64,000 bases of DNA from an uncultured Acidimicrobiales bacterium (GCA_963733765.1 CAVTEI010000003.1:501453-565452), one strand, 5' to 3'; shown: positions 19,990 to 54,135, counted from the first letter of the stretch. Numbers and translations: made by a program. Notes: generated by a model from the letters alone, not told the origin.

Positions 19990-20025
19990 TGCCCGATTCG
20001 CGACGTCGGCGTACCGTGGCCGGGG

Positions 20026-20907: not shown

Positions 20908-20966
20908 AGTTCAGCCCTGCGGTGCAGCGGTCGAGGCCGCCGATCAGGTGGGCCGGCCGCTGGCGA

Positions 20967-25622: not shown

Positions 25623-25660
25623 GTCGCTCCCCATGCGCCCCTCTCCCAGGACAGGCGCGC

Positions 25661-25708
25661 ATGGTACGTCGTGGTGACGAGGCGTCAATCGGTGCAATCG
25701 GCACCTAT
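25661..25708 (-). promoter_or_regulatory. Promoter TTGACG-N16-TACCAT for the SIS-hypC/hypEF operon, adjoined by hydrogenase-locus motif site 3
   Basis: -10 at 25661-25666, -35 at 25683-25688; ATCGGTG-CAATCGG-CACCTAT at 25688-25708. Confidence 0.65.
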
Positions 25709-25723
25709 CGACCCACGGCCGTA

Positions 25724-37340: not shown

Positions 37341-38153
37341 ATGCCGTCGCCTCCCCCCGCTCCCTCGGCAGCGCCTCCGGCAGGGCTCCCGACCGCATCA
37401 CAGAACGTCTCAGTGTTGCCCGTGGTCCCCCATGCCCGGCGGTGCCTGCACTGCGATCCTCCCCTCACCCCCGCGGGCTTCTTTGCCAGGCGCCAACCGG
37501 CGCTGGTCGGTCTCGGGGCGGTGTTCCTTCTCATGGCGGTGGCCGCACTGGTCAGCGGTGGCGCGGTGCTCCTGACGTGGGACGAACCCATTCAGCGGGC
37601 TGTCGAAGCGAGCCGCACGTCTCTGTTCGATGGCATCTTCAGCCGCGTCTCGTTCCTGGGCTCGACCGTGTTCGTCCTCACCTTCGGTTGCGTGCTCGCC
37701 GCGGTCGCGTGGCGGCGATGCCGCACGGTCGGCGTGGCGGTGATCCTCGCGATGCTGAGCCGGCCGCTGCTCGAGTTCACCCTGAAGGCCATCGTCGGTC
37801 GCGACCGTCCGGATCTCGAGCGCATGGTCGACGGCACCGGTCCCTCGTTCCCGAGCGGGCACGTGATGGCGGCGGTCGCAGTGTGGGGGTTGTTGCCGCT
37901 CGTGGTCTCGCTCTACACGAGCAACCGTCGAGTGTGGTGGAGCACGACGGTGGGGTCAGCCGCCTTGATCGTCGCGATCGGCGCGAGCCGCATCTACCTC
38001 GGTGTGCACTGGTTCTCCGACGTGATCGGCGGGCTCATCGTCGGCGCGTTCTTCCTCCTCGGCACGGAATGGGTGCTCACGCGCCAACATCGCCGCGACC
38101 CCTGCGTGCGGGGTTGCGCGTGCGTGCACACTGAGGAACCCGCCAGGCTCTAG
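37341..38153 (+). CDS. PAP2-family membrane phosphatase
   Basis: K....R.RP, SFPSGH, SRIYLGVHWFSDV. Confidence 0.9.
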   Translation: MPSPPPAPSAAPPAGLPTASQNVSVLPVVPHARRCLHCDPPLTPAGFFARRQPALVGLGAVFLLMAVAALVSGGAVLLTWDEPIQRAVEASRTSLFDGIFSRVSFLGSTVFVLTFGCVLAAVAWRRCRTVGVAVILAMLSRPLLEFTLKAIVGRDRPDLERMVDGTGPSFPSGHVMAAVAVWGLLPLVVSLYTSNRRVWWSTTVGSAALIVAIGASRIYLGVHWFSDVIGGLIVGAFFLLGTEWVLTRQHRRDPCVRGCACVHTEEPARL

Positions 38154-38422
38154 CCCTCCCCGACCATCGCTGCGAGCTGCTCTCGGGTGATGTGCATCTG
38201 GATCTCGTGGACCTCGTCGTAGGGGAAGCCGAGGCGCTCGAACTCCTTGATCACCATCTCTTCGCTGTCGGCTTCGTAGAGCGTGACGATGAAGCCCTCG
38301 AAGATGTTCACGGTGACGCTGACCATGGTCGCGTGCGTCCCTTTCAACACGTCGGGCGCGTTCTGCATGAACTCCTCTTGAGAGAGGCCGGGAGCGCGGT
38401 GGATCGTGGCGTACTGCGGCAT
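38150..38422 (-). CDS. DUF4242-like (SCO4226 nickel-binding family) small protein
   Basis: LYEADSEE.V...ERLGFPYDEVHEI pattern; AGGAG RBS. Confidence 0.6.
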   Translation of the reverse strand: MPQYATIHRAPGLSQEEFMQNAPDVLKGTHATMVSVTVNIFEGFIVTLYEADSEEMVIKEFERLGFPYDEVHEIQMHITREQLAAMVGEG

Positions 38423-38466: not shown

Positions 38467-38513
38467 TAGCGATATTCAGCACGCTTGACCCGTAAATCGG
38501 GACGACTTACGGT
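38467..38513 (+). promoter_or_regulatory. Promoter TTGACC-N17-TACGGT (probably leaderless) overlapped by tandem operator pair A
   Basis: -35 at 38485-38490, -10 at 38508-38513, ATG 7 nt later; boxes TAGCGATATTCAGCA (38467) and ACCCGTAAATCGGGA (38488). Confidence 0.75.
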
Positions 38514-38520
38514 CGGGACC

Positions 38521-39720
38521 ATGAGCGCGCTCGCAGAGCGACCCGACCTCGATTTCGCCGAGCGCGACCGCCGTTGGAGTCGCGTGCGCGCCGGCATGGC
38601 CGAGCGAGGCATCGACCTCCTCATCGTGCTCCCCCAATCCGACCCCATCGACGTGCTCTACCTCAGCGGTGGCGAACAGGGTGCGGTGCTCTTCCCGGTC
38701 GATGAGGATCCGTGGATCCTGCTCGGCGGCGAGGACAGCAACCTGGCGGTGGAGCGGGAAGGCTGGATCACTCAGCGCGAAAGCGCGACGCCGTTCGGCT
38801 CGACCAAGGTCCCCTATGGAGCGGCCGTCGCCGACAAGCTGCAGCGGCTGAAGCTGAAGCCGCCGCGGGCGGGCATTGCCGGGCTCGACGGCGACCTGTA
38901 CTCGCACGTCCGGTCGGCTGACGGCTACGCGGTCTACTCGAGCGTGCATCGGATCATCGGCGCGCTCGACGGCTGCGAGATCGTCAACGGGGCGCCGGTC
39001 ATGTCGCGTGCTCGCTACGTGAAGAGCGAAGCCGAGATCGCGGGGTTTCGGGCGGGCATCGAGGTCGCCGAGGCCGGCGCTCGTGCCATTGGTGAGGCGT
39101 ACAGCATCGGGAAGGCACAGGCCGACGCCTACCGCGCCGGCATCGCCGCGATGCTTCAGCCTGGGCTCGGTGTCCCATCGATCGCCTGGTGTCCAGGACC
39201 GTGGAAGACCCCACGGCCGCGGATCGTCGGCACCCCGCCCGGCGACATCTTCGACGGCCTCTGCGTCGCGGCCGAGATCATGCCGGGCTCGCGGATGATG
39301 ACCCAGGTCGCGGAGCCGTTCTTCGCGGGCAGCATCCTCCCCGAACAGCAAGAGGCGTTCGACCTCAATGTCGCCGCGTTCGAAGCGACGCGGGCCGCGT
39401 TGGTGCCGGGCGCGACCTGGCGCGACGTCGAGACCGCGGCGCTCGCGGTCGCCGACGGCACCGATTGGCAGGTGAGCTTCCTCCTCCACGGCGGCTTCGA
39501 CGGACCGCTCTTCATCCCCGTCGACAGCCACGACGACGTTCTCGACGATCGCATCGAGGCCGACACGATCTTCATTGCCAAGCCCACGGTGTTCCCAAGA
39601 GATGCGGAGCGTGTCGTCACGCGCAGCCACGACGTCAGCTGGGGCGACATGGTGGTCGTGAAGGAAGGCGGCGCGGAGCGACTGGGCACCCGCCCCCAGC
39701 GCCTCATCTCCTACGGCTGA
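38521..39720 (+). CDS. M24/creatinase-fold protein
   Basis: ERDRRWSRVR..M...GID, RYVKSEAEI, PGATW.DV, GDMVVV...GAERLG; canonical peptidase metal ligands not evident. Confidence 0.75.
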   Translation: MSALAERPDLDFAERDRRWSRVRAGMAERGIDLLIVLPQSDPIDVLYLSGGEQGAVLFPVDEDPWILLGGEDSNLAVEREGWITQRESATPFGSTKVPYGAAVADKLQRLKLKPPRAGIAGLDGDLYSHVRSADGYAVYSSVHRIIGALDGCEIVNGAPVMSRARYVKSEAEIAGFRAGIEVAEAGARAIGEAYSIGKAQADAYRAGIAAMLQPGLGVPSIAWCPGPWKTPRPRIVGTPPGDIFDGLCVAAEIMPGSRMMTQVAEPFFAGSILPEQQEAFDLNVAAFEATRAALVPGATWRDVETAALAVADGTDWQVSFLLHGGFDGPLFIPVDSHDDVLDDRIEADTIFIAKPTVFPRDAERVVTRSHDVSWGDMVVVKEGGAERLGTRPQRLISYG

Positions 39721-39828: not shown

Positions 39829-41121
39829 ATGACCTGGGAGCGCAGCGCGATCGCGGATCTGTTCTCGGTCGCACAGAAGGCAGGGCCATACGGTGATCTG
39901 CCGGCGACCCCCGCCGGCCTGGATCCCCAGATCCACGTGTCACGCAACGAGGGCGTCCAGCCCTTCTTCCTCACCTGCGAGCGTGACTCTCTCGTGGTGA
40001 CGCTGAGCGGCGAGGGCTTCGTCGAGTTCCGCGACTCGAACGTGCTGCACTTCCGGATCACCCCGGGCGACTTCGTCTACGTGCCGGCAGGGACGCCGCA
40101 CCGCATCCGGGCCGAACGCTCGATGGTGCAGCTCCGCTACAAGGCGCTCGACCCTGGCAAAGAAGTCGTGTCATGGCACTGCCCCGAATGCAACACGGAG
40201 CTGTGGCGCCGCGAGTTCGACGCCACGAGCGAGATCCCTCAGCGCGTGTATCTCGAGACGACTGCCGAGTTCAACGGCAGCGATGATCTCCGCCGCTGCG
40301 CGAAGTGCAGCGCGGTCCACCCCCCCGTCGACGTCTCGGGCGCGCAGTGGGGAGAGATCGCAACATGGCTCGACGCCGAGCGCGCGGACGCACCTCCCCG
40401 CGCCACCAACAGCGATCGTCTCCCGCCGGCGAACGACCGCGAGCCGCTGCGCACGAACGTCTTCGAGCTCATGCGCACGACGACCACGCAGCTGCTCCCT
40501 CTGTTCCCCTACCTCGGCCCGGGGGCGATGCTGCCCGCGGGCGCGCTGTTCCAGGGGCGACCCGGAGCGCAGTACGGACGCTTCTTCCACCGCAACAGCG
40601 AGGAGGAGGTCTCGGTCTGCTTCGGTGGTCAGAACGCACTCGGGGCCGCCGGCGTGATGTTCATCGGCGGGAAAATGCACGAAGTGCAGGCGCCGCTGCT
40701 CGACACGAACGATCCCAGCGCCTTCCTGATCTCGGTGATCACCCAGCGGCAGCAGGACGAAGGACGCGAGCAGCGTGAGTCAGTGATCTTCCGCTGCTCC
40801 GAGTGCAACAACAAGCTTCACCAGGTCGACTACTCGGCCGAGCTCCCCGACCCCGACCGCCCCGACCTCGTGACCGGAGGACAGGCCGACGACGAGTACG
40901 AGATGTTCCCCACCATGTGGGGCAGCATCCTCTCCACTGACTCGTTCAACTCCGACGAGAAGGCGCGCACTTGCACCCGGTGTGGCCACGTCAATCCCCC
41001 CTTCCCCGCCGAGGCCTGGGGCTGGCAGAACTACGTCGACCGCCACGGGGTCGTCAACGCGGCGCGCCATCTGCTCGACGAGACCGCGAGCAAGGCCGAC
41101 GCCGCGGCGTCAGCTGTCTGA
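39829..41121 (+). CDS. Two-module 3-hydroxyanthranilate 3,4-dioxygenase-like cupin fusion
   Basis: Each half is a cupin plus a rubredoxin-like site (WHCPEC...RRCAKC; FRCSEC...RTCTRC). The halves match the separate genes at 48121-48675 and 48679-49404. Confidence 0.7.
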   Translation: MTWERSAIADLFSVAQKAGPYGDLPATPAGLDPQIHVSRNEGVQPFFLTCERDSLVVTLSGEGFVEFRDSNVLHFRITPGDFVYVPAGTPHRIRAERSMVQLRYKALDPGKEVVSWHCPECNTELWRREFDATSEIPQRVYLETTAEFNGSDDLRRCAKCSAVHPPVDVSGAQWGEIATWLDAERADAPPRATNSDRLPPANDREPLRTNVFELMRTTTTQLLPLFPYLGPGAMLPAGALFQGRPGAQYGRFFHRNSEEEVSVCFGGQNALGAAGVMFIGGKMHEVQAPLLDTNDPSAFLISVITQRQQDEGREQRESVIFRCSECNNKLHQVDYSAELPDPDRPDLVTGGQADDEYEMFPTMWGSILSTDSFNSDEKARTCTRCGHVNPPFPAEAWGWQNYVDRHGVVNAARHLLDETASKADAAASAV

Positions 41122-41833
41122 AGCCGAGCGCGGCCTCGCCCAAGTAGCTCACCTCGAGCAGGTCGCGCCGGTCGCGGAGGTCTTCGGCCCGGCCTTCGAG
41201 CACGAGCTCGCCGTGGTTCAGCACATACGCGCGGTCGGAGATCCCCAACGACAGGTGGGCATGCTGCTCGACGAGCAACAACGCCGTGCCGGTGTCAGTG
41301 ACGACCTGCTTGAGCAACGCGAGCAGGCGCTCGACGATGAGCGGCGCGAGGCCGAGACTCATCTCGTCGACCACCAGCAGACGAGGTCGCGCCGCAAGCC
41401 CGCGCGCGATCGCCAGCATCTGCTGCTCTCCGCCCGACAGCAGACCAGCCTTGCGCTTCGCGAGCGCTGCCAGCTCCGGGAAGAGCTCGAACATGTGGGC
41501 AGCTGCACTCTTGTTGCCACGAGCGCCGAGACGGATGTTCTCCTGCACGGTGAGGTCGAAGAACAGCGCGCGATCTTCGGGCACGAGTGACACGCCCATG
41601 CGCGCGATTGCGCTGGCGTGGATCGAATCGAGCTTGGTCCCGCCGATCCTGATCTCGCCGGCGATGGGCGGCAGCAACCCACACGCCGTGAGCAGCGTCG
41701 TCGTCTTGCCGGCGCCGTTCGGGCCGAGGAGGGCGACGACCTCGCCTTCCGAGACGTGGAGCGAGACGTTGCGGACGACCGCGAGCTGCCCGTAGCCGGC
41801 GAGGAGGTCTTGCACGGCGAGCAGCTCGTTCAC
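41054..41833 (-). CDS. Branched-chain-type ABC ATP-binding protein (LivF-like)
   Basis: GPNGAGKTT, LSGGEQQM, VDEMSLGLAP, LVEQ. Confidence 0.92.
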   Translation of the reverse strand: MNELLAVQDLLAGYGQLAVVRNVSLHVSEGEVVALLGPNGAGKTTTLLTACGLLPPIAGEIRIGGTKLDSIHASAIARMGVSLVPEDRALFFDLTVQENIRLGARGNKSAAAHMFELFPELAALAKRKAGLLSGGEQQMLAIARGLAARPRLLVVDEMSLGLAPLIVERLLALLKQVVTDTGTALLLVEQHAHLSLGISDRAYVLNHGELVLEGRAEDLRDRRDLLEVSYLGEAALGFRQLTPRRRPCSRSRRADGAPR

Positions 41834-42616
41834 GCCGCACCGCCGGCAGGCTCGACCCGGGCGGGATCCTCGCCTAGGTAGGAATGCAGCACATCGGCGT
41901 TGCCGCGGATCTCGGCCGGCGTGCCCGAGGCGATGAGACGTCCGGCGTCGAGCACGTGGATGTAGTCGCAGACCGTGAGCACCAGCGCCATGTCGTGGTC
42001 GACGAGGAGCAGACCGAGCCCCGACGCCGCGACCTGACGGAGGCGAGTCCCGAGCTCCTCGGTCTCGATCCGGTCGAGCCCTGCAGCAGGCTCGTCGAGC
42101 ATCAGGAGAGTGGGCCGGGCGACGATCGCGCGCGCGAGCGCCACCGACTTGCGCTCGGCCTGTGACAGCGAGCTCGGCAGACGATCGGCGACGCCGTCGA
42201 GGCCGAGCAGCGACAGGGCACGGGCGACGTCGTCGCTGTCCTTTCGCGCGCCACCGGAGGATCACGTCAGTGAGCGACCTCCACCACTGCGGGCTCTCGG
42301 TCGTGACCCGCACGTTGTCCGCGACCGTCATGTCCTCGAACAACTCGAGCGACTGGAACGTACGTGCGAGCCTGCTCAGCGCGCGCCGATGGGCGCGCAT
42401 CCGAGTGATGTCCCGGCCTTCGAACCGGATCGAACCGCCCGCAATCGGCGCGAAGCCGGTGACCGCGTCGATGAGCGTCGTCTTGCCCGCGCCGTTCGGC
42501 CCGATCAGGCCGGTGATCCCCTCGCAGGGCACGCGCAGCGACACGTCGTCGACCGCTCGAAGACCGCCGTACACGACGCAAAGCCCCTCGATCTCGAGAA
42601 AGGGCGACGCGCTCAC
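41830..42616 (-). CDS. Branched-chain-type ABC ATP-binding protein (LivG-like; apparent frameshift near 42243)
   Basis: GLIGPNGAGKTT and RTFQ in one frame; LDEPAAGL, VDHDM, YLG in the next. Confidence 0.88.
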
Positions 42617-44656
42617 GGGCTCACTCCCACCGTCGACCGCTCGGGCGCGGGCACCTCGCCGTCGGACGCCGCGGGCTTCGACCCCCGCGACGTCACCGCC
42701 GCCTTGATGCGGCGCAGGCCGCGCTCGAGAGAGTCGGACAGGCCGTCGGGATGGAGGATCGTCGTCGCGACCAGCCCGAGGCCGCCGATCAGGTAGGCGT
42801 ACCGGCCGATGCCGAACCACTGGTCGAGCAACGTCGGGCCGAAGCCGTTCGGCGCGAAGAACAGGCCGGCGACGATGGCGCCCGAGATGCGGGCGACGCC
42901 ACCGATGTAGATGAGTGCGACGAGGAGCAGCGAGGTCAGCACCGAGAACTGCTCACCCGAGAGGTTGCCCGTGAGCAGCCCGGTCATCGATCCCGCCGCG
43001 CCCGCGATGAAGCCGGAGGCCGCGAACGCGAAGAGCTTGGCGCGCCCGAGGCTGACGCCGGACGCGACGGCGGCGCGCTCGTTCGCCCGGATCGCGAGCA
43101 GCTGGCGGCCGATCCCGCTGTTGCGCAGGAAGGCCACCAACACCCCGAGGAGCACGGCGACGATCAGCACCAGGACGCCGAACTGGGGACGCGGATAGGC
43201 CGTCGCATCGGAGGTGCGGATGTTGAAGTCGATGCCGAACAGCTTCACCGCGGGGATCAGGCGGCCGGAGGCGCCGCCGGTGAAGGTGCCGCTGCTGAAC
43301 AGGAACGCATCGAGCGCGACCGCGGCGGCGAGCGTGAGCACGGCGAGGTGGATGCCGCGAGTTCGAAGTGCAGGCAACCCGACCACCAAGGCGAGCGGCG
43401 CGGTGGCCAGGCTCGCGAGCAGCAGCGCGAGTGGGAAAGGCACGCTGAGCTCGGCACTCAGGATGCCGTACATGAATCCGCCGAACCCGGCGAACGCCAT
43501 CTGCGCGAGCGAGATCTGGCCGGCGAACCCGGTGACCACGACGAGCGACAAGCCGAGCACGATCACGATCAGGCTCTGGATCAGCCCGAGCCGCAGGCTG
43601 CTGCCGAGCGTGAAGAGCGCGACCGTGCCCGCGGCAAGGCAGAGCACCGCCGAGAGCACGACCTGCTTCGGGCGCCCAGCGACCGGCATCGCTCGATCGA
43701 TCAGCGTGCCTCGCCACGGGATCGACCGTCCGAACACGACGAGGGCGACGATGATCGCGAGGAACGGCAGGCCCTCCTGAAGGCCGCTCTCGGGCAGCCA
43801 GTCGAACTCGAGGGTGAGCTTGGTCACCTCCGACTGCGCCATGCCGATCGCAAGACCCGCGATGACGGTCACCGAGAACGACGTCATCCGCCCGAGGAGC
43901 GCGGCGCCGAGCGCGGGGACGATGAACAACGTGAACGACGTGGGGTTGAGGCCGGAGATGGGTGTGATGAGGATGCCGGCGAACCCGGCGAGCGCCGTCG
44001 CCACCATCCAGTTCACCGCGCCGAGACGAGTCGACGAGTAGCCGCACACCGCCGCGCCCTTCTCGCTCTCCGCCGCCGCGCGCGTCGCGAGGCCGAACGT
44101 CGTGAACTTGAACACGGCCCACAGCGCGACGCCGATCGCGACAGTGAGCGCAGCGAGGTAGAAGCGATCGCGCGGAACGCTGGTGCCGAGCACGTCGAGC
44201 GGATCGTTCGGCAGGATCGTGCCCGCGGTCTGGCCGGAGATGTTGAAGGCGTCGTCGCCGAGGTTCAGCACGACCATGGCCTGCACGACGATCATCAGGC
44301 CGACCGACGCGACGAGGCGCGCGAGCGGCGGCGAGTTGCGCAGCGGCCGGAAGATGACGAGGAAGATGACGAGGCCGAGCCCCGCCCCATAGAGCAGCGC
44401 GATCAGGAGCGCGGGGATCGGTGGAGATGCCGTCGCCGAAGACCCGAACCCGAGACGGGATGCCGACGACCGGCAACATGAGGTAGCCGGTCGTGCGGAG
44501 GTCGATGTACGCGTACGCGATGAACATCGCGATCGCGCCCTGAGCGAAGTTGATGACGCCCGAGCTGCGGTACTCGAGCACCAGCCCGAGGCCGAGGATG
44601 GCGTAGACCGCGCCCGCGCCGAGCCCGAGAAGGAGGAAGAGGACGTACTGCGACAT
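42613..44656 (-). CDS. Fused LivH-LivM-type ABC permease (apparent frameshift near 44420)
   Basis: YRSSGVINFAQGA at the N-terminus; GQISLAQMAF, AIRANERAA and HPDG after the shift. Confidence 0.88.
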
Positions 44657-44688
44657 CCGCTACCGCTCAGGAAGCGACAAGTCGGCGA

Positions 44689-46014
44689 TCAGCCCGCCGC
44701 ACCCCAGAGCGTGTCCATCGCCACGTAGTCACTGAGCTTCGTGACCGTCCCGTCGACGAACTGCACGAGGTACGCGGACCCTGCGCAGATGCCCGGGAAG
44801 TTGGCCACCGGCGGCGCCGAGCACGAGTAGGGCACGTTGAGGAAGCTCGGCTGGTCGGCCGTCGCCTTGAACGCCGCGAGCACGCTCTCGTGGGTGAGCG
44901 ACGCCGGGTCCATGTCGTCGAGGAGCTCGTGGATGTTCATGATCGTGCCGAAGCCACCACGGGAGAAGTCGGTGTCGGCGGCGTCGGGAGCCTCCTCCGC
45001 CATGACCTCGTTGTAGAGCACCACGTCGGGATCGTCGGGGAAGACCTCGACACCCTTGTAGAGCCCGACGAAGTACACGCCGTCCGCAGCATCGCCGGCC
45101 GCGGCCAGGGTGTCGGGGTCGCCGCAGTTGTCAGGCATGATCATCGGCACGTCGGTGCCGAGGCTCGAGTACGCCTGGAACGCCGGCTGGCACGGCAGGC
45201 CGTAGGCCAGCAGCGCGTCGGGGTTGGTGTCGAGCGCGGCTGCGAACGTCGCGGTGAGGTCCGCGGAGCCCACGGGCGCGTTCACGGGAGTCGGCGCGGG
45301 GATGCCGGCCGCCGTCGCAGGCGCGTCCATGAACAGCGCCCGGATGAACGCGTTGGACGGAAGGTCGAGGGCAAGCGCGGCGAGGTTCGTCGCCTGCAGC
45401 TCAGAGATCGCGAAGTGCACCATCGCCGGGAACAGCGACGCCGACCACCCGTTGAACAGGGAGCGGGTCGGTGACGTGTACTCCGGCGGCGTGAACGACG
45501 CGCCGCCGATCAGCGGGATGCCGGTCGCGTCGATCGTGGGCTGCACGGAGAGGGCGCCCGCGTCGGGGCCGGGGATGATGATCAACGGGTCCTTCTGGAA
45601 GAGCTCGTTCACGCACGCCGTCAGCCCCGGGGGCGTGTAGTCGGTCGTGCACGACTCGAGCTGGATCGGCCGACCCCCGATGCCACCGAGCTGGTTGTTC
45701 ACGTACTCGACGGCGGCCTCGGCCCCGTCGATCAGCTCGGGCGCCGTGAACGACTGGTTGTCGGCCGGCGTGTAGATGCCGATGACAATCGGTTCGCCGG
45801 TGGCCTGCTCGCCGGCCGCAGTTGTCGCCGCGCCCGCGGCGGTGGTGGCTGCGCCCGCGGCAGTTGTCGCCGCGCCACCGGTGGTCTCAGAAGCGTCGCT
45901 GCCCGAATCATCGTCGCCGCAGGCGACCAGGGTCATCACGCACACGGCAGCAACGAGGCCACCGACCACCCGCCTAGGTGCCCGCTTCCTCCGCGCTCCA
46001 ACCCGTGCGCCCAT
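44689..46014 (-). CDS. ABC substrate-binding lipoprotein (LivJ-like fold)
   Basis: Lipobox LVAC, Ala/Thr linker, GEPIVIG, YVNNQLGGIGGRPIQL..C. Confidence 0.88.
   Translation of the reverse strand: MGARVGARRKRAPRRVVGGLVAAVCVMTLVACGDDDSGSDASETTGGAATTAAGAATTAAGAATTAAGEQATGEPIVIGIYTPADNQSFTAPELIDGAEAAVEYVNNQLGGIGGRPIQLESCTTDYTPPGLTACVNELFQKDPLIIIPGPDAGALSVQPTIDATGIPLIGGASFTPPEYTSPTRSLFNGWSASLFPAMVHFAISELQATNLAALALDLPSNAFIRALFMDAPATAAGIPAPTPVNAPVGSADLTATFAAALDTNPDALLAYGLPCQPAFQAYSSLGTDVPMIMPDNCGDPDTLAAAGDAADGVYFVGLYKGVEVFPDDPDVVLYNEVMAEEAPDAADTDFSRGGFGTIMNIHELLDDMDPASLTHESVLAAFKATADQPSFLNVPYSCSAPPVANFPGICAGSAYLVQFVDGTVTKLSDYVAMDTLWGAAG
45811..45877 (-). repeat. Coding 21-bp repeat x3 (GAATTAA linker)
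   Basis: Protein reads GAATTAAGAATTAAGAATTAAG after the lipobox. Confidence 0.8.
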
Positions 46015-46036
46015 CTGATCCCCCCAGGTAGCCGAT

Positions 46037-46072
46037 TACCGAATAACAGGACTCGAGTGCCGAATATTAGGC
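46037..46072 (-). promoter_or_regulatory. Tandem operator pair C upstream of the ABC importer
   Basis: Minus strand GCCTAATATTCGGCA-N6-TCCTGTTATTCGGTA; 14 bp identical to pair B. Confidence 0.75.
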
Positions 46073-46096
46073 ACCTGTGCCGAGACGGGCAAGACG

Positions 46097-47128
46097 TCAG
46101 ACGACGGCGCCACTGACCGCCGCGTGGATGTCGAGCAGCGGGAGCACTTGCTCGGGCGGCCGGCGACCCATCCCACATTCGGTGGCCACCCCGAACGACG
46201 GAACGACTTTCGATGCCGCGGCGATGCGGCGCTCGGTGCCCTCGACGCCGTCGGTGAAGTGCACCAGGCCGAGGTAGAGCTCGGTGTCGTCATGCAGCGC
46301 GAGGTCGCCGAGCGGCGCGAAGTAGCCGACGTCGTCGCGGTCGCGCGGCACCGGCAGATGGATCCACGTGAGGGGCCGGTTCACACCTGCGCTCAGCGCG
46401 TTCGCGATGTCGGCGAGCTTGCCTGCGTCGACGGGCTGCTTGAAGTGCTCGTGCTCATAGTCGCCGTAGCAAAGGTGGTATCCGAGCTCGATGTCCGGGG
46501 GCACCCAGCTCGCATAGCGGATGAGACGATCGAGCACTCCTTGGCGAAGGTCACCCTCGAAGTAGGGAGGGAAGACCTCCTCGAGGATGCCGAACTCGGC
46601 CGCGGTGTCCCACTGGAACGCGAGCTTGTCGTGAGGCACGACGGCCGCGATCCGTTCGATCTCACGCTCCATCGCCATCTCGTACGCGGCTTCGAGCGTC
46701 AGTTCGAGGCCGGGCACGACGAACGCACTGATCGGCGCGAACGGGGTGGGGAGACTGACCTGGAACCGCCAGTGCGACGGAAGGTCCCCAGCGGCCTGCA
46801 GGTCCGAGAAGAGCTCCCATGACGAGACCGCGCTCTCCGCGTAGCCGAGCGCTCCGAAGTCGACGTCGTCGGGAGACTCCCCCTCCCTGACCGCGATCCG
46901 CGGGTTCGGGGCGTAGTTGCGCGGACCGGGCGGGATGACCTCGAACTGCGGGTCGGCCATGAACCGGTGCAGCTGCCACACGATCCAATCGAGCCGTGGC
47001 CCGGTCTCCCCGTCGGTCACCCGGCGGAGTCGATCACCGAGCCGCTCCGCGCACGCGCGGAACACGGCCTCGGCGTCGGGCAACGACACCGAGCCGACGA
47101 GGTGCGCGCCATTCGGATTTCCAGCCAT
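46097..47128 (-). CDS. MetE/UroD-superfamily-like Zn TIM-barrel protein of unknown function
   Basis: HLVGS, DGETG.R, RFQVSLPTP, QWD, HLCYGD (HxC) and ATECGMGR (Cys) Zn-type ligands. Confidence 0.7.
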   Translation of the reverse strand: MAGNPNGAHLVGSVSLPDAEAVFRACAERLGDRLRRVTDGETGPRLDWIVWQLHRFMADPQFEVIPPGPRNYAPNPRIAVREGESPDDVDFGALGYAESAVSSWELFSDLQAAGDLPSHWRFQVSLPTPFAPISAFVVPGLELTLEAAYEMAMEREIERIAAVVPHDKLAFQWDTAAEFGILEEVFPPYFEGDLRQGVLDRLIRYASWVPPDIELGYHLCYGDYEHEHFKQPVDAGKLADIANALSAGVNRPLTWIHLPVPRDRDDVGYFAPLGDLALHDDTELYLGLVHFTDGVEGTERRIAAASKVVPSFGVATECGMGRRPPEQVLPLLDIHAAVSGAVV

Positions 47129-47149
47129 GTCTCCCCCTGTGTCGTGAAG

Positions 47150-48121
47150 TTACGAACCGAGCTCGTCGTAGACGCGCGCCGCCGCGGGGTGCAGCGGGAT
47201 CGGCGTCGCACGCATGTGCTCGGGCACGAATGGATAGTTGAGCGGGCTGCGCTCGGACGGGATGTGGTGGTACTGCCGCTCGATCGCGTGCGCCGTGTGC
47301 ACCATGCACCAGGTGAGCAAGTACGCGACGTCGTCGGGCATGTCCTCGTGCACGAGCACGAGGAAGCTGCTGAAGTCGAGCGTCAGCAGGTCGTCGTCGC
47401 ATCCAGGGAGGTACCCACCGCGAAGGATGGCTCGCGGCCAGCGCAGCTCGTGCTCGAGAGCGCTGAGAGCGGCGTCCTCCATCGGGACGAAGTTCGTCTG
47501 CCGGGCGACGCCGACCTCCTGCCAGGGGGGCGTCATGATCGCCTCGTGGAACACCGCGTCGGCGAGGCCGTCGCGGTACCAGTGGAGCGGCGGGAACGGG
47601 CGCTCGTCCTCCAGGAAGCTGCCACCCCACCCGAGGAACTCGTCGCGCGAGATGCCGTGGGCGGCCATCACGCGGTTCACTCCATATCCGACCGTGTTCA
47701 CTCCGTCGTTTTGGGAGGTCGCGATCTTGAGCGGCACCTTCTTCTCACGCAGATCCTCGAACGTGCGCACGCCGTGCTCGGCCCCGACGGCGAAGACCAA
47801 CCGATCGTCTTGGGGCATCACGCCCAGCGCCCGCACCTCGGGGAGGGGTGTGCCCTCGAACATGCCGACACCGGCAACGGCCGAGTAGCCGACGTAGGCG
47901 GGGACGACCATCGAGAGATCGACCTCGTGCTTGACGATCGCGTCGACGGCGTCGGTGCCGCCGCGACCACTCCAGATCGCGGTGCGCGACCCGGGCCCCG
48001 CGCGATCGTTGAACTCCTGGGCGAGCCAGCCGCAGATGCGATGAAGGTTCGCCTGTCCCCAGTCACCTTGGAACTGGAGCGTGACGGCGCGGTCGATGTG
48101 GGGCTGCCCCGGCTTGGGCAT
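47150..48121 (-). CDS. TAXI/NMT1-like periplasmic-binding-fold protein lacking a signal peptide
   Basis: GVRTFEDL, LLVLVHEDMPDDVAY and PIPLHPAAARVYDELG (TAXI-type end); ATG overlaps the upstream TGA; hydrophilic N-terminus. Confidence 0.7.
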   Translation of the reverse strand: MPKPGQPHIDRAVTLQFQGDWGQANLHRICGWLAQEFNDRAGPGSRTAIWSGRGGTDAVDAIVKHEVDLSMVVPAYVGYSAVAGVGMFEGTPLPEVRALGVMPQDDRLVFAVGAEHGVRTFEDLREKKVPLKIATSQNDGVNTVGYGVNRVMAAHGISRDEFLGWGGSFLEDERPFPPLHWYRDGLADAVFHEAIMTPPWQEVGVARQTNFVPMEDAALSALEHELRWPRAILRGGYLPGCDDDLLTLDFSSFLVLVHEDMPDDVAYLLTWCMVHTAHAIERQYHHIPSERSPLNYPFVPEHMRATPIPLHPAAARVYDELGS

Positions 48122-48675
48122 CACGCGGTCCGGATGGCCTCGGCGACCTCGGGCCAGCGAATGCCATCGAGCTCGACGACATCGTGGACAGTGCCACACG
48201 ACCCGCAGCGGCGGAGGTCGACGTCCGCGTTGAAGGCGTTGCACGCGCGCCAATAGGCGTCTTGCGGCAGCTCCTGCTCGGTGTCGAACTCGTCGCGATG
48301 CACCTCGGCGCCGCACGCGGAGCAGAACCACGCCACGGCCTCGAGGCCCGCGTGCAGCGCCTTGTAGCGCACGTGAATCGACGGCTCGTCGGGGCGGATG
48401 CGACTCGCGGTGCCGGCCGGCAGGTAGACGAGGTCACCCGGCTCGAGGCGGTGGTAGCGAACCGGTGAGTGCTCGAGGTCGAGCGTGGCGGTGCCCGACA
48501 CCTGCGCGAGCACGCTGTCGGCCGAGCAGATCAGAAAGAAGGGCTGCGGTCGATCGTTGCGCGAGACGTGCACCTGCGGGTCGCGGCCGTCGACGAGCAC
48601 CGGCAGCTCGTCGTAGGGCCCGCACTCCTTCGCGGCGTCGAACACCTGCACCAGCTTCTTGCGAGTGAGCTCCAT
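48121..48675 (-). CDS. 3-HAO-like cupin, 'A' subunit (iron-ligand residues apparently absent)
   Basis: GPYDELP, DPQVHVSRN..QPFFLIC, PGDLVYLPAGT, WFCSAC...RRCGSC; homologous to the N-half of 39829-41121. Confidence 0.7.
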   Translation of the reverse strand: MELTRKKLVQVFDAAKECGPYDELPVLVDGRDPQVHVSRNDRPQPFFLICSADSVLAQVSGTATLDLEHSPVRYHRLEPGDLVYLPAGTASRIRPDEPSIHVRYKALHAGLEAVAWFCSACGAEVHRDEFDTEQELPQDAYWRACNAFNADVDLRRCGSCGTVHDVVELDGIRWPEVAEAIRTA

Positions 48676-48678
48676 CGG

Positions 48679-49404
48679 TCAGGCCGTCGCTTGCGACTCG
48701 GCCGCCTTTGCCAGGAAGACGGCGCGCGCGTCGTTCACGGTGCGCTGATGCATCGACCACTTCGCCCAGCCCCACTCGTCCATCGGGAACGGCGGGTTCA
48801 GATGGCCGCATTTCCCGCACGTGCGCAGGGACTCATCCGAGTTGAAGCGGGCGACCGGCTCGACCGACTCGTTCAATGTGGGGAACGCGGGGAAGCGATC
48901 CTCGTGGTCCTCAGTGGGGCGATCGGTGAACTCGTGCGCGAAGAGGTGCTCGTGGCACTTCACGCACTTCCAGATCAACCGCTCGGTCTGCGCGTCGGTG
49001 TCGCTCTGCCGCTGCACGATCGTCACGAGCAGGAAGCTGTCGGGCGACTGAGGATCGCGCAGGAAGCTGTTGACGCCGTGCAGGTTCGGCTGCGCCATGA
49101 TGCGACCGGTCTCGAGCAGCGCGCCGTTCGCACCCCACACGAACGTGATCTCGTCGACGGTGTTGAAGTGAAAGAAGTGCCCGACGTCGTAGCCCGGGCC
49201 ACCGCGGAAGAGCGCGCCGGAGTACACGATCGCCCCCGGCCCGTAGTAGGGGAACAGGGGCACGAGTTGGGTGTTCGCGTGCTGCATCCGCTCGTAGACG
49301 TTGACCTTCAGCGGCTCGCGCGCACCGGTCGGCGGTGGGATGCGGTGCTCCTCGGCGGGTGCCGTCGAAGTCCGTGTCATCGAAGCCCGTGTCATCTGCA
49401 CCAT
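48679..49404 (-). CDS. 3-HAO-like cupin, 'B' subunit (H-x5-E...H triad present)
   Basis: EPLKVNVYE, QLVPLFPY, FFHFNTVDE, NLHGV, WKCVKC...RTCGKCGH.NPPFP; homologous to the C-half of 39829-41121. Confidence 0.7.
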   Translation of the reverse strand: MVQMTRASMTRTSTAPAEEHRIPPPTGAREPLKVNVYERMQHANTQLVPLFPYYGPGAIVYSGALFRGGPGYDVGHFFHFNTVDEITFVWGANGALLETGRIMAQPNLHGVNSFLRDPQSPDSFLLVTIVQRQSDTDAQTERLIWKCVKCHEHLFAHEFTDRPTEDHEDRFPAFPTLNESVEPVARFNSDESLRTCGKCGHLNPPFPMDEWGWAKWSMHQRTVNDARAVFLAKAAESQATA

Positions 49405-49494: not shown

Positions 49495-50289
49495 TCAGCC
49501 GATCTCGGCAAGGCGATCGGTCACGCGTTTCGCCGCCGCCTGCGCGGCCTGAATGACCGCGGGAAAGTCGTCCTCTGTGATTTCGAACGCCAGGCACGCC
49601 ACGCTGATACCGGCGGTCAACTTGCCGTCAGGCCCGAAGACCGGGGCGGCCACCCCTCGCACGCCGACGTCGCGCTCGCCATTGCTCAGGGCATAGCCGC
49701 GCTCTCGAATGTCAGCGAGTTCGCGGCGCAGATCATCCGGATCGGTGATCGTCGTGGCGGTGAAGCGCTCGAACGGCGCAAGCGAATCGACGACGCGGTC
49801 GGCGTCCTCTTCGTACGCGAGCAGCACCTTCGCCGGCGCTCCCGCGTGCAAGGGGAGCAGGTGGCCTCTCTCGTAGCTCAGCCGGATGGGCCGGGCGATC
49901 TCGACGCGCTCGACGCACACCGCCATGTTCCCGGAGCGTCGGGTGAGGAGCACCGTCTCGTCGACCTCACGGGCGAGGTCGCGCATGATCGGCAGCGCGA
50001 TCTCAGAAAGGCCGAGTCCCTCACGCGCGATGCGAGCGAGCTCGAACACGCGCGATCCGAGCCGAAAGCCACCCCGCACGGCGTCTTCCTCGAGGAGGTT
50101 CGACGTCCGCAGGCTCTGCAGGTAGCGATAGGTCGTGCTGCGCGACATCCCGAGCCGCTCGGCGATGTCACCCGCCGAGAGGACCGGCGTGTTCAGGTCG
50201 AACAGGAAGAGCACGTCGATCGCACGATCAGCGGTGCTGTTGCGCCCCGTCGTGGATGCTCCCGTTTCACTGGGCACCTGTCCCATCAT
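49495..50289 (-). CDS. IclR-family transcriptional regulator
   Basis: ADRAIDVL, IAERLGMSRSTTYRYL, PLHAGAPAKVLLA, IRERGYA....E...GVRGVAAPVF. Confidence 0.95.
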   Translation of the reverse strand: MMGQVPSETGASTTGRNSTADRAIDVLFLFDLNTPVLSAGDIAERLGMSRSTTYRYLQSLRTSNLLEEDAVRGGFRLGSRVFELARIAREGLGLSEIALPIMRDLAREVDETVLLTRRSGNMAVCVERVEIARPIRLSYERGHLLPLHAGAPAKVLLAYEEDADRVVDSLAPFERFTATTITDPDDLRRELADIRERGYALSNGERDVGVRGVAAPVFGPDGKLTAGISVACLAFEITEDDFPAVIQAAQAAAKRVTDRLAEIG

Positions 50290-50385: not shown

Positions 50386-51459
50386 ATGGAGTTCGGTGTG
50401 CAGTTCTTCCCATCGGTCGGGCCCGAGACGACGCCGGCGAGCCAGTACTTCGCGGAGGCGCTCCGGCTCACCGAGCAATCGGAGGCCCTCGGGTTCACGA
50501 ATGTCCGCACTGTCGAGCACTACTTCCATCACTACGGCGGATACTCGCCGAACCCGCTCATCTTCCTCGCGGCCGCGGCAGAGCGCACGACGACGATGCG
50601 TCTCATCACCGGCGCGGTGCTCCCCGTCTTCAACCACCCCCTGAAGCTCGCCGGCGAGATCGGCATGCTCGACGCGATCTCGGGCGGTCGACTCGAGGTC
50701 GGCTTCGCACGCGCGTTCCTGCCGCACGAGTTCCAACGCTTCGGGGTGAGCCTCGACGAGAGCCGCGAGCGCTTCGACGAGGGCATCGCGATCGTCGACC
50801 GCCTGCTCTGCGAGGAAGACGTCGCGTTCGAAGGTCGGTTCCACCGCTTTCCCGCAACGACCTCACTGCCCCGGCCGACCCAACAGCCGCGGCCTCCGTT
50901 CTGGGTTGCCGCGCTCGCGACTGAGGCCTCGTTCGTCAGCGCCGGCACGCACGGCTACTCGATCATGGCGATCCCGCTCGCCGGCGCGAAGCTCGCGTCC
51001 CTGCTGTCGGCCTACCGAGACGCTTGGCGCAGCGCCGGTCATCCCGGTGATGGGCGAGTGATGCTCGCGTTCCACATGCTCTGCCACGATGACGAAGCAA
51101 CCGCGCACGATCTCGCTCGCGACCTCATCAATCAGTACCTCGCGAGCCTCGTCGACGGCGCGAGCGGTTGGCTCGACGGCTCGAGCTCGGACGACTACCC
51201 CGGGTACGACGCGATCATCCGAGGCCTCAAGGCCGACTCATTCGAGTCGCAGCTCGCGCAGGGCGCAGTGTGGGTCGGCTCCCCCGACTCGATCTCCGAG
51301 CAGATCGCCGCGTACGCCGAGGCCGTCGGGGGATTCGAGATCGCCTCGATGCAAGTGAACTTCGCGGGCCTTCCCTATGAGGTCGCCACCCGCTCGCTCG
51401 AGCTCTTCGGGCGCGAGGTCTTGCCGAAGTTCAGCCCGCTCGCTGTCACGACGCCGTGA
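50386..51459 (+). CDS. LLM-class (luciferase-like) flavin-dependent oxidoreductase/monooxygenase
   Basis: VEHYFH.YGGYSPNP, LDAISGGRLEVG, PRPTQQPRPPFWVA, LELFGREVLP. Confidence 0.9.
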   Translation: MEFGVQFFPSVGPETTPASQYFAEALRLTEQSEALGFTNVRTVEHYFHHYGGYSPNPLIFLAAAAERTTTMRLITGAVLPVFNHPLKLAGEIGMLDAISGGRLEVGFARAFLPHEFQRFGVSLDESRERFDEGIAIVDRLLCEEDVAFEGRFHRFPATTSLPRPTQQPRPPFWVAALATEASFVSAGTHGYSIMAIPLAGAKLASLLSAYRDAWRSAGHPGDGRVMLAFHMLCHDDEATAHDLARDLINQYLASLVDGASGWLDGSSSDDYPGYDAIIRGLKADSFESQLAQGAVWVGSPDSISEQIAAYAEAVGGFEIASMQVNFAGLPYEVATRSLELFGREVLPKFSPLAVTTP

Positions 51460-52343
51460 AGCTGGCGCTCTTCGACGACTGGCGGCTCGGAGTTGTCGAT
51501 GCTGACGCGCAGATGATCTGGGACGTGACTGACGGACTCACCGGACCGCGCGATCCCGATCCCTTTGGCGCCGGATGGTGGGTGCGCATGTGCCGCGACT
51601 TCGACCGGGTGCGGCCGAAGATCGATCGCTTGGTCGCGTCGAGCGACGCCCGTCCGCTCGGCGATGTCACGCTCCGTGCCCCCGTGCTGAACCCCGGCAA
51701 GGTGCTCGCGACCGCATCGAACTACGGCGAGCATGTCGCCGAGATGCGCGAGGTCGTCCTGGACCGCGTGGCTGGGCACGTGGACGGATGGCTCTTGAGC
51801 TTCGACGTGTTTCTGAAAGCGCCTTCGTCGATCGTCGGTCCGGGCGACGCGGTGATCCTCCCCGCCTCGGAAGTCGAGAACGGCCGCGAGATCCACCACG
51901 AGAGCGAGCTGGCGGTGGTCATCGGCCGGGAGGCCTCGCACATCCCTGAGGCGGATGCCCTCGAGCACGTGCTCGGCTACACGGTCGCTCTCGACATGAC
52001 GGTGCGCGGCGAGGGCGATCGCTCGCGTCGCAAGAGCTACGACACGTTCACTCCGATCGGACCATGGTTGGTCACGAGCGACGAGATCGGCGACCCGGGT
52101 GGGCTCGACGTTCGCCTCGACGTCGATGGCGAGTGCCGGCAACGAGCACGTACCGGCGACATGCTCGTCAGCGTTGCTGGGATCATCTCGTACGCGTCTG
52201 CGGTGATGCGCCTCGATCCCGGTGATGTCATCCTCACGGGCGCACCCCCCGGAGTCGGCGAGGTGCACGCGGGAGAGGTGATGGTGTCGCACATCAGCGG
52301 CATCGGCACGATGCGCAACCCAGTGCAGATAGGAGCGCGATGA
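51456..52343 (+). CDS. Fumarylacetoacetate hydrolase family protein
   Basis: NYGEH, FLKAPSS, HHESEL, RKSYDTFTPIGPW, PGDVILTG.P.GV. Confidence 0.92.
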   Translation: MKLALFDDWRLGVVDADAQMIWDVTDGLTGPRDPDPFGAGWWVRMCRDFDRVRPKIDRLVASSDARPLGDVTLRAPVLNPGKVLATASNYGEHVAEMREVVLDRVAGHVDGWLLSFDVFLKAPSSIVGPGDAVILPASEVENGREIHHESELAVVIGREASHIPEADALEHVLGYTVALDMTVRGEGDRSRRKSYDTFTPIGPWLVTSDEIGDPGGLDVRLDVDGECRQRARTGDMLVSVAGIISYASAVMRLDPGDVILTGAPPGVGEVHAGEVMVSHISGIGTMRNPVQIGAR

Positions 52344-53443
52344 ACGGCCCCCGAGACGACCCCCGAGACCTGCAAGACCGGCTCGACTCCTTCTACGCCG
52401 ACCTCGCATCGGTCGACCTCCAACCCCTCTGGACCCAGACCAAGAACCTGCTTCCGGCGTTCCCCGCTCCCGCCGCCATCCCGTGGTTGTGGCAGGGGGC
52501 GACGCTCCGCGCGCTCGCGGCGCAAGCACGCGACCTCATCACGATCGAACGCGGCGGCGAACGACGCGTGCTCGCCCTCGCGAACCCCGGGCTCGGCGGC
52601 GCGCCGTTTGCGACGCCGACGCTCTGGGGCGCGATCCAAGCTCTCGGTCCGCACGAACGCGCTCCCGCGCATCGCCACACGGCCTCAGCGATTCGCTTCG
52701 TCCTCGAGGGCGACGGCGTGTGGACAACTGTCGACGGCGACGCGTGCCGCATGCATCCGGGCGACCTCGTGCTGACCCCCGCGTGGACATTCCACGACCA
52801 CACGAACGAGGGCGACGAAGCCATGACCTGGTTCGACGGCCTCGACCTCCCCCTCGTCAACACCCTCGATGCCGTCTTCTACGAGAACCATCCCGACTTC
52901 AACCAGCCGGTGCGGGGATACGACCTGTCGGAGCAGACCTATGCCGGCAGCGGCCTTCTGCCGTACGGAACGTCGAACGACGCGCCCCACTCGCCGCTCC
53001 TCGTGTACCGGTGGGCACAGAGCGACGCGATGCTCGCCCGCCTGCTGGCCTCCAACGGAGGGGTCATGGCGAGCATCGAGTTCGCCGACCCCACCTCGGG
53101 CGGACCGGCGCTGCCGACGATGACCTGCGCGCTGCACCGCGTTGTTCCCGGCGGGCGGTCCATCGCGACTCGCAAGTCCGGCAGCTCGATCTTCGTGGTG
53201 TATCGCGGTGCCGGCCGAAGCGTGATTGATGGACAGGCCTTCGACTGGACTGCGGGCGACATGTTCGTCGTTCCGTCGTGGAAGTCCGTCGACCACGAGG
53301 CGGAGACGACCAGCGAGCTGTTCGAGGTGAGCGACGAAGCCGCGCTCCGCGCGTTGCGCCTGTTCCGCAGCGAGACGGTCGACGAGCCTCAGGACGTGAA
53401 GGCCGTCTTCCGACCCCGGGCCCTCGAAGCGATCAGGACGTGA
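52340..53443 (+). CDS. Gentisate/salicylate 1,2-dioxygenase-family bicupin
   Basis: ERRVLALANPGL, APAHRHTASAIRF, GDLVLTP.W..HDH, WFDGLD.P, GDMFVVPSW. Confidence 0.88.
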   Translation: MNGPRDDPRDLQDRLDSFYADLASVDLQPLWTQTKNLLPAFPAPAAIPWLWQGATLRALAAQARDLITIERGGERRVLALANPGLGGAPFATPTLWGAIQALGPHERAPAHRHTASAIRFVLEGDGVWTTVDGDACRMHPGDLVLTPAWTFHDHTNEGDEAMTWFDGLDLPLVNTLDAVFYENHPDFNQPVRGYDLSEQTYAGSGLLPYGTSNDAPHSPLLVYRWAQSDAMLARLLASNGGVMASIEFADPTSGGPALPTMTCALHRVVPGGRSIATRKSGSSIFVVYRGAGRSVIDGQAFDWTAGDMFVVPSWKSVDHEAETTSELFEVSDEAALRALRLFRSETVDEPQDVKAVFRPRALEAIRT

Positions 53444-54135
53444 CCCAAGCGATCGACGAGGTGGTGCGGGCAAACCGCGCCCTCGCTGCGGCTGGACAGT
53501 CCGATCTGATCTGGGGACACGCGTCGGTTCGTGACCCCGCGGGCCGAGGCGTGTGGATGAAGGCAGCCGGCTGGGGCTTCGAGGAGGTGACGGCGGAGCG
53601 AGTCGTGCTCGTGTCCGACGATGGTGAGGTGCTCGCCGGCACCGGCGCGCGCCACATCGAGTACCCGATCCACAGCGAGGTGATGAAGCGACGCCCCGAT
53701 GTCGGCGCCGTGGTTCACACCCACGCCCTGTCGGCGGTGGCGTTCGCATCACTCGACGTGCCCCTGCGCGCGCTGTCCCACGATGGGGCGTGGTTCGCGG
53801 AGCCCGACATCCCGAGGTTCCGCGCCTCTGGGAGCTTGGTCCGGACAGCGGAGCTCGGCGCGGCGCTGGCCTGTGCGGTCGGCGACGGACCCGGGTGCCT
53901 CATCCCGAACCACGGGCTCGTGACGGTCGGCGCATCGGTCGCACAGGCCGTGATGGGCGCTGTCGTCCTCGAGCGCGCCTGCAAGGTGCAGCTCGCGGCG
54001 ATGGCCGCCGGCGGGCCGCAGGTGTGGTCGGACAAAGAGGAAGTCGAGCTCAAGCAGCGCGAGGTGTGGACGCCGGAACAGATCAGCGCCGGCTTCGACT
54101 ACCTGTGCCGCGCTGCGGACGCCGGCCGCAGCTAA
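53440..54135 (+). CDS. Class II aldolase/adducin-family Zn protein
   Basis: WGHAS.R, EYPIHSE, VVHTH, NHG. Confidence 0.88.
   Translation: MTQAIDEVVRANRALAAAGQSDLIWGHASVRDPAGRGVWMKAAGWGFEEVTAERVVLVSDDGEVLAGTGARHIEYPIHSEVMKRRPDVGAVVHTHALSAVAFASLDVPLRALSHDGAWFAEPDIPRFRASGSLVRTAELGAALACAVGDGPGCLIPNHGLVTVGASVAQAVMGAVVLERACKVQLAAMAAGGPQVWSDKEEVELKQREVWTPEQISAGFDYLCRAADAGRS

Follow-up and report, generated by a model that had tools for sequence, protein, structure and literature searches.

The 64,000-nt stretch of DNA analysed here (GCA_963733765.1 CAVTEI010000003.1:501453-565452, hereafter the window) belongs to an uncultured Acidimicrobiales bacterium and encodes, twice, a two-part protein whose halves (modules A and B) both resemble 3-hydroxyanthranilate 3,4-dioxygenase (3-HAO), once as a single fused A-B polypeptide and once as two separate adjacent genes. 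On balance, we favor the view that A and B form an obligatory bicupin-like unit with a catalytic B, which is probably an O2-dependent oxygenase of aromatic or heteroaromatic catabolism and not 3-HAO. What computation shows for these proteins is their homology and fold, the conservation of their residues, the linkage and fusion of their genes, and a predicted interface. What appears to be new is an unannotated family of two 3-HAO-like paralogues with four-cysteine (Cys4) ribbons, paired or fused, together with an A site found at several stages of loss and a recurrent cytosolic neighbor of the TAXI fold. The genes and modules concerned are the following.

39829-41121, plus strand: fused A-B gene, 430 aa
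39829-40383, residues 1-185 of the fused protein: A module, with F47, D53, H91, and C118/C121/C157/C160
residues ~186-198 of the fused protein: linker, of low model confidence
40423-41118, residues 199-430 of the fused protein: B module, with H254, N256, E260, H284, and C323/C326/C382/C385
48679-49404, minus strand: split B subunit, 241 aa, with H79-x-N81-x3-E85...H109 and C147/C150/C196/C199
48121-48675, minus strand: split A subunit, 184 aa, with F47, D53, S91, and the Cys4 set C118/C121/C157/C160

The sequence-only reading of the window had proposed that the two forms correspond to each other, and the pairwise comparisons agree: residues 1-178 of the fused protein align gaplessly with split A (44% identity, E 2e-54) and residues 199-427 match split B at 40% identity (E 2e-57), a similarity that far exceeds chance. 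The gene order is indeed reversed in the split copy, where B lies upstream and A downstream on the minus strand, while A is N-terminal in the fusion. Within the split copy a 3-nt spacer separates the B stop codon from the A ATG, the stop codon of split A overlaps the ATG of the following TAXI-like gene by one base (TGATG), and the Shine-Dalgarno-like stretch GAGGGGGA precedes the split B ATG at 49404. The ATG at 39829 agrees with the N-termini of homologues of the fused protein, and these three proteins are all the copies present in their own genome. The likeness between A and B is confined to the C-terminal ribbon parts in BLASTP (27% identity, E 3e-6), and their profiles align with a probability of 98% (hhalign, E 7.6e-14, 113 C-terminal columns); as this alignment looks misplaced near the second cupin motif, it was not used to equate metal residues.

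Both halves are predicted to be all-beta barrels, and their structural matches are cupins throughout. The AlphaFold2 (AF2) model of the fused protein, for which the input alignment combined fused forms with rows of split A and split B, reached a predicted local distance difference test score (pLDDT) of 92.8 and a predicted template modeling score (pTM) of 0.91. Its best matches with VIA were animal bicupin 3-HAOs (Z 18.0-18.2, 249-250 residues, root-mean-square deviation (rmsd) 3.9-4.0 Å), the human enzyme aligning to model residues 7-312 with Z 18.2, and gentisate and salicylate dioxygenase bicupins came second (Z 15.3-16.6). Bacterial 3-HAO (6X11) covered the A domain including its ribbon (model residues 6-168, Z 13.7, rmsd 2.5 Å, 160 residues). 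For the model of B alone (AF2, pLDDT 77.1, pTM 0.67), ranks 1-22 in Foldseek were all 3-HAO (E 7e-9), as were the 20 best entries in VIA (Z 9.4-6.6, ~150 residues), with the next cupin at Z 4.7. Searches of PDB sequences with single proteins gave weak matches only, and a profile built from 27 A subunits matched bacterial 3-HAO chains (E 3.3e-9) with the His of its PAGTPH motif lined up with a 3-HAO His. The predicted structures thus bear out the earlier description of the modules as 3-HAO-like and indicate that A and B are both 3-HAO-type cupins with a C-terminal Cys4 ribbon.

Membership in the 3-HAO family itself did not survive comparison with the family models. The NCBIfam 3-HAO models were the top matches for all three proteins, though at sub-threshold scores (NF009763: fusion 61.2, A 40.1, and B 25.9 bits, cut-off 220; TIGR03037: fusion 47.4, A 34.5, and B 19.8 bits, cut-off 145.95), and the Pfam 3-HAO model PF06052 did not match any of the three at E ≤ 1. 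In Pfam, Cupin_2 matched the fused A module marginally (28.5 bits, cut-off 27.2) and no family matched B, while nothing in the window's own genome, which is 85% complete, scored above a 3-HAO cut-off. No kynurenine or nitrobenzoate pathway family (ACMS decarboxylase, aminomuconate semialdehyde dehydrogenase, kynureninase) was present among the Pfam and NCBIfam matches of the annotated neighbors between 16 and 63 kb of the window, the genome not being searched for them by name. In the alignment of the A profile to 4WZC, the columns facing Arg99 and Glu110, which we take to be the substrate-binding residues of Cupriavidus metallidurans 3-HAO and which follow its second His, hold hydrophobic residues and Lys (A only). 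With family scores far under the cut-offs and no kynurenine-pathway gene seen nearby, the A-B family is separate from 3-HAO and is not the 3-hydroxyanthranilate dioxygenase itself; ordinary 3-HAO was rejected on family scores, gene context, and A-site residues.

Residues were counted in 206 near-full-length B domains and 81 distinct A modules. Translation of all four window modules confirmed the CxxC...CxxC pattern previously noted in them, and the H-x5-E...H triad is confined, as stated then, to the window's B modules (H254/E260/H284 in the fused and H79/E85/H109 in the split form). Across the family, H79, N81, and E85 are found in every B domain, H109 in 205 of the 206, each ribbon Cys in 205-206, Q139 in 204, and E141 in 205. 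The A site presents a different picture. Position 47, which corresponds to the first His, is Phe in both window A modules, and position 91 is His in fused A and Ser in split A, so that the loss of the first His from both and of the last His from split A stood as described; the carboxylate, also reported as lost, is in fact retained, Asp53 (six residues past position 47) being invariant in 81 of 81 A modules. Q34, F46, Y84, and R103 likewise do not vary, 76 modules have the whole set of four Cys, and 70 keep His91. Position 47 is occupied by His (27), Phe (28), Tyr (21), or Trp (5); 43 modules have a non-His residue there with His91 kept, and 11 have lost His91 too, the window A modules falling into these degenerate classes (F/D/H fused, F/D/S split). 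The distance from the carboxylate to the last His is 24 residues in B vs. 38 in A.

The ratio of non-synonymous to synonymous substitution rates (dN/dS) was 0.07-0.15 for split A compared with six close orthologues (0.37 compared with locus L011) and 0.11-0.18 for split B; despite having lost both His, split A is under purifying selection as strong as that acting on B. The A half of the fused protein is less constrained (0.28-0.50 vs. 0.07-0.22 for its B half). The invariant A residues D53, Y84, and P86-G88 lie in the predicted interface with B, a position that can account for their conservation without catalysis.

A genome scan found 95 relatives, from which 79 loci were kept (~67 assemblies by contig-name count, 11 of them holding 2-3 loci each). 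A follows B on the same strand with a gap of 0-203 nt in 69 loci and precedes it within an A-B fusion in five; the locus itself ends ≤ 147 nt past B in three, A is divergently adjacent to B in one, and a single locus has a solo B without A, in a Streptomyces that carries B-A pairs elsewhere. The co-occurrence of A and B therefore amounts to adjoining or fused modules in 74 of the 76 loci extending past B, plus one in which A is adjacent on the opposite strand. The five fusion loci are all from Acidimicrobiales, and each shares its contig with a split copy; the fused gene is intact in three of them and frame-broken in the assemblies of the other two. These two (L069 and L081, both Acidimicrobiales metagenome-assembled genomes (MAGs)) hold orthologues of the fused gene broken between the A and B parts, probably through sequencing error, a recent split being possible. 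Other, unusual arrangements were B-A-B in a Spirillospora (L061, 6001-8018), one B-A pair on each strand inside 3 kb of an alphaproteobacterial MAG (L031), and a divergent A and B in Nocardia albiluteola (L067).

Among the 206 B domains, 16 start past residue 150 of their protein, and all fusions are ordered A-B. In a FastTree phylogeny of B domains the fused forms appear at four separate places, a number of fusion events that is only indicative because support values were not printed, and the window fusion is nested among split B proteins. A scan of metagenomes for the split relatives closest to the fused clade (P0017-P0022) gave two loci, L083 and L084, the latter containing an A module. The window's two copies are old paralogues that sit in different clades of the tree, and from the clades and the multi-locus assemblies it is plausible that the two act on different substrates or steps.

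Prediction of the split A:B complex with ESMFold2 gave an interface score (ipSAE) of 0.90 (runs 0.91, 0.90, and 0.88) vs. 0.01 for the best of three controls, with at least 86% of contacts agreeing between runs and a partner pLDDT of at least 93. In the predicted interface, B residues 20-37 (its N-terminal arm) pair with A 80-84 and A residues 7-12 with B 100-104; the fused model shows short strands at 8-10 and 207-210 that match this reciprocal exchange of N-terminal strands. Co-occurrence, repeated fusions, the fused model, whose pLDDT and pTM exceed those of B modeled alone, and the complex score together leave the A:B heterodimer, which had been put forward as obligate, well supported in silico.

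The window has a GC content of 65-71%, and the collected genomes most closely related to it are Acidimicrobiales MAGs. The genes around the two copies are listed below.

38150-38422, minus strand: SCO4226-like protein, 90 aa, beside the fused copy (PF14026, E 1.8e-5, 25.2 bits, under the cut-off of 28.5)
38485-39720, plus strand: M24/creatinase-like protein, directly upstream of the fused gene (weak, sub-cut-off PF00557 and PF01321)
41054-46014, minus strand: Liv-type ABC transporter (binding protein at 44689-46014 with PF13458, permeases, two ATPases)
46097-47128, minus strand: 343-aa protein of no family, following the TAXI-like gene within one operon
47150-48121, minus strand: TAXI/NMT1_3-like protein with no signal peptide (PF16868, E 2.5e-19)
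49495-50289, minus strand: IclR-family regulator, directly upstream of split B (PF01614, PF09339)
50386-51459, plus strand: luciferase-like monooxygenase, divergent catabolic group
51456-52343, plus strand: FAH-family hydrolase, divergent catabolic group
52340-53443, plus strand: gentisate-1,2-dioxygenase-like bicupin, divergent catabolic group (TIGR02272, 284.6 bits, under the cut-off of 442.1)
53278-54135, plus strand: class II aldolase, divergent catabolic group

The TAXI-like protein scored 69.6 bits with TIGR02122 (under its cut-off of 84.35) and matched TAXI proteins in the PDB at E 1e-6, while the 343-aa protein had no Pfam, NCBIfam, or PDB sequence match. The Liv-type transporter genes form the end of the minus-strand gene string that carries split B-A. 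One Liv ATPase looks frame-broken, its N-terminal half lying in the open reading frame (ORF) 41054-42820 and its C-terminal half (from LMLDEPAAGLD) in another frame at 41830-42144, and so does one permease, which begins in ORF 42953-44656 but carries on in ORF 42613-44295; the apparent breaks (41054-44656, minus strand) are either errors of a long-read MAG assembly or real pseudogenes. The 3' end of the fused gene (plus strand) and that of the convergent ATPase ORF (minus strand) overlap by 68 nt (41054-41121), the ATPase ORF running ~30 residues beyond the point where such proteins normally end. Farther away, the window encodes the large and small subunits of a [NiFe]-hydrogenase with NifU-like, HypF, HypE-like, and HypC-like maturation genes (16157-25697, minus strand), a 531-aa fusion of an alpha/beta-hydrolase domain with an adenylate/guanylate cyclase catalytic domain (25508-27103, plus strand), and an 864-aa protein that joins an N-terminal flavin-monooxygenase-like part (FMO-like, Pyr_redox_3) to a C-terminal esterase-type alpha/beta-hydrolase (Abhydrolase_3; 59702-62296, minus strand).

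Since the greedy ORF set included wrong-strand ORFs, neighbors up to 6 kb from B were counted across the 79 loci by tblastn, with proteins of the window itself as queries. TAXI/NMT1_3-like genes were found near B in 50 loci and SCO4226-like genes in 48 (at least one of the two in 62, both in 36). No hydrophobic N-terminus is present in 51 of 52 TAXI-like homologues, which start a few residues ahead of a conserved GDWGxANLHRICGW motif and are thus taken to be cytosolic and not transporter components, i.e., by their sequences, a cytosolic branch of a transporter binding-protein family. Homologues of the IclR regulator occur in 22 loci, of the 343-aa protein in 16 (in L018 a cobalamin-independent methionine-synthase-like gene adjoins it), and of the M24/creatinase-like protein, next to a fused copy or a B-A pair, in 10. 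Elsewhere the loci carry MarR and GntR regulators, flavin hydroxylases, dienelactone hydrolase, DHDPS-family and aldolase genes, VOC dioxygenase, aldehyde and alcohol dehydrogenases, and TRAP or MFS transporters. The neighborhood is therefore a setting of aromatic catabolism, one that does not name the substrate.

From these data we infer metal, reaction, and substrate, and what the neighbors do, as follows. A and B would be two paralogues of ancient divergence that share a single fold, in which a Cys4 metal ribbon comes after a 3-HAO-type barrel, and would together build one obligatory unit of bicupin architecture, made either from two translationally coupled genes (B, A) or as a single A-B polypeptide; in the model, each module donates its N-terminal strand to the barrel of the partner. 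B would hold the catalytic mononuclear metal, probably Fe(II), at His-Glu-His with the adjacent invariant Asn, in addition to its Cys4 site. Because the first His is lost in both window A modules, and the second also in split A, A would here act as the structural or partner half. Most likely, the unit is an oxygenase that depends on O2 and belongs to a pathway for the catabolism of aromatic or heteroaromatic compounds. Ring cleavage is the foremost guess, as the near structural relatives all perform it and share the triad spacing, and the best single guess would be extradiol-type cleavage of an ortho-substituted hydroxy- or amino-aromatic acid. The cytosolic TAXI-fold protein and the SCO4226-like protein encoded alongside are its probable co-workers.

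A number of observations weigh against this interpretation. A profile built from 23 B subunits had no PDB sequence match, 3-HAO included, so that the likely link from B to 3-HAO comes from its predicted structure and the sub-threshold NCBIfam match, and the spatial proximity of H79, E85, and H109 is suggested by their positions in the cupin motifs. The mark set for ipSAE, which 58 of 80 solved complexes but also 2 of 110 mismatched pairs attained, is calibrated only roughly for the A:B complex because custom alignments were used, and part of the A:B score may reflect likeness to solved 3-HAO homodimers and bicupins, which resemble the A:B arrangement. The full H-x5-D...H is kept in 27 of the 81 A modules, hence A may form an additional active site in some family members; the pseudo-catalytic character once assigned to A applies to the window and not as a family rule. 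Two fused forms (the metagenome proteins P0028 and P0196) end in a Rieske [2Fe-2S] domain, and a ferredoxin reductase gene together with a 4Fe-4S ferredoxin gene recurs in eight loci, which hints at an electron input that an extradiol dioxygenase needs for reactivation only. Lastly, a separate ring-cleavage-type gene (gentisate-dioxygenase-like bicupin or VOC) is found in the window and in 19 other loci (tblastn, E ≤ 1e-5; some matches are weak, with 23-26% identity), so that B-A may do something else in these clusters.

The recurrent redox partners and the additional ring-cleavage genes keep alive the explanation that A:B is a non-ring-cleaving oxygenase or cupin enzyme of another type (such as a hydroxylase, demethylase, decarboxylase, or isomerase), supplied by a ferredoxin or Rieske protein with electrons that enter at its Cys4 iron, ring cleavage being left to its neighbors. 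P0028 and P0196 form one A-B fusion clade with P0023, P0024, P0025, and P0209, and three or four Cys of the A ribbon are lost in all four members scored (P0023, P0024, P0196, and P0209), a further point in favor of this explanation. We nevertheless regard it as unlikely, if a serious contender, given that the closest structures are all extradiol ring-cleaving 3-HAOs, that the 2-His-1-Glu site has the H-x5-E spacing of 3-HAO, and that most loci, the window included, have no dedicated redox partner within 6 kb; moreover, there are known small ferredoxins whose sole task is to re-reduce extradiol dioxygenases that have become inactivated.

A more elaborate, and rather doubtful, proposal is that the SCO4226-like protein, B, A, and the TAXI-like protein make up a multi-component cupin oxygenase with a chemistry beyond O2-only cleavage. 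The cytosolic TAXI-fold protein, recruited from transporter binding proteins, would capture the aromatic or heteroaromatic substrate and pass it to A:B, and the two Cys4 iron sites would serve as an internal electron relay, the clade without the A-site Cys4 having members with a fused Rieske domain.

A non-enzymatic role, i.e., a metal-handling or ligand-sensing complex of cupin and zinc ribbon acting with the nickel-binding-type SCO4226-like protein and the TAXI-fold binder, is very improbable. TAXI proteins bind ligands, cupins include non-enzymatic binders, and the SCO4226 family is described as nickel-binding in PMC4186839; against this, the canonical catalytic triad is intact in 205-206 of the 206 B domains, the genes lie within catabolic operons under IclR, MarR, or GntR regulators, and neither module is fused to a DNA-binding or signaling domain. 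Finally, the idea that these are ordinary 3-HAO paralogues, each homodimeric and serving tryptophan or nitroaromatic breakdown with A and B adjacent by chance, draws on the NCBIfam best matches and the closest solved fold and can be set aside in view of the low family scores, the missing first His and altered substrate-facing columns of A, the near-constant A/B linkage, the lack of kynurenine-pathway families among annotated neighbors, and the own-genome result.

The preferred reading of A:B as a catalytic B with a partner A can be placed beside several known systems. Bacterial 3-HAO is a homodimer of identical subunits, and here two paralogues are paired or fused instead. Like both modules, the bacterial enzyme (NbaC/HAO; Cupriavidus metallidurans, 1YFU, 4WZC) has a single cupin barrel and, after it, a Cys4 rubredoxin-like ribbon; no structure matches the A domain or B alone better (Z 9.0-9.4 for the latter), and its 2-His-1-Glu site has the H-x5-E spacing in common with B. 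B differs in its shorter carboxylate-to-last-His stretch and in its N-terminal arm, and the A/B loci differ in having no kynurenine-pathway context among their annotated neighbors. Animal 3-HAO carries its metal in only one of two barrels and is, like the fused protein, a single-chain bicupin of the 3-HAO lineage (HAAO; 2QNK, 5TK5, 3FE5); it is the top structural match, at 9-10% identity in the structural alignment. Unlike the animal enzyme, the window fusion has its complete triad in the C-terminal barrel and a Cys4 ribbon on both barrels, and the A-B family has a split two-gene form, which is the commoner one (69/79 loci). Four solved 3-HAOs are listed in PMC3765361.

Gentisate and salicylate 1,2-dioxygenases (3BU7, 2PHD) are bicupin ring-cleaving Fe(II) dioxygenases of aromatic-acid catabolism that share the fold (identity to the fused protein 8-11%) but not the Cys4 ribbons, and the gentisate-dioxygenase-like gene of the window lies 3 kb away. 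These enzymes use three His, in contrast to the His-Glu-His plus Asn of B and the incomplete site of the window's A modules. In 2-aminophenol 1,6-dioxygenase (AmnAB), LigAB, and the hydroquinone dioxygenase PnpCD, adjacent genes encode a catalytic subunit and a related or accessory subunit without metal ligands, the same logic of a catalytic and a degenerate half as in A:B; AmnAB and LigAB have a LigB-type fold, unlike A:B, and none of the three is known to have paired Cys4 ribbons. They gave no sequence or structural match in the lists examined, though a distant likeness may exist. A catalytic half joined to a decayed paralogous half has precedents in animal 3-HAO and, with other folds, in enzymes of the AmnAB/LigAB type. 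In the literature searched, which lay mostly outside subscription journals, neither a heteromeric 3-HAO-like cupin nor a TAXI partner in the cytosol was found to be described.

The A-B family is rare and uncharacterized. A search of 1.84 billion representatives with the B profile gave 224 proteins (50%-identity clusters, E ≤ 0.001), and the 150 matches listed among these include the window's own clusters as well as the earlier matches. The family is present in Actinomycetota, Chloroflexota, Binatia, Alphaproteobacteria, Eremiobacterota, and other taxa; cultured carriers include Amycolatopsis sacchari DSM 44468 (L012), Kribbella orskensis (L014), and Streptomyces yaanensis (L049). The protein atlas had no match at ≥ 0.9 and no named cluster.

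The present analysis defines an uncharacterized, rare enzyme family with a testable architecture. An invariant-triad B next to an A at different stages of loss offers a natural series from homodimer through catalytic/structural pair to bicupin. Should the TAXI-fold partner, which has no signal peptide, be functional, it would represent an uncommon case of a transporter binding protein put to new use. The family would give a name to several hundred 'hypothetical proteins', and it flags a likely missing step in the aromatic catabolism of soil bacteria.

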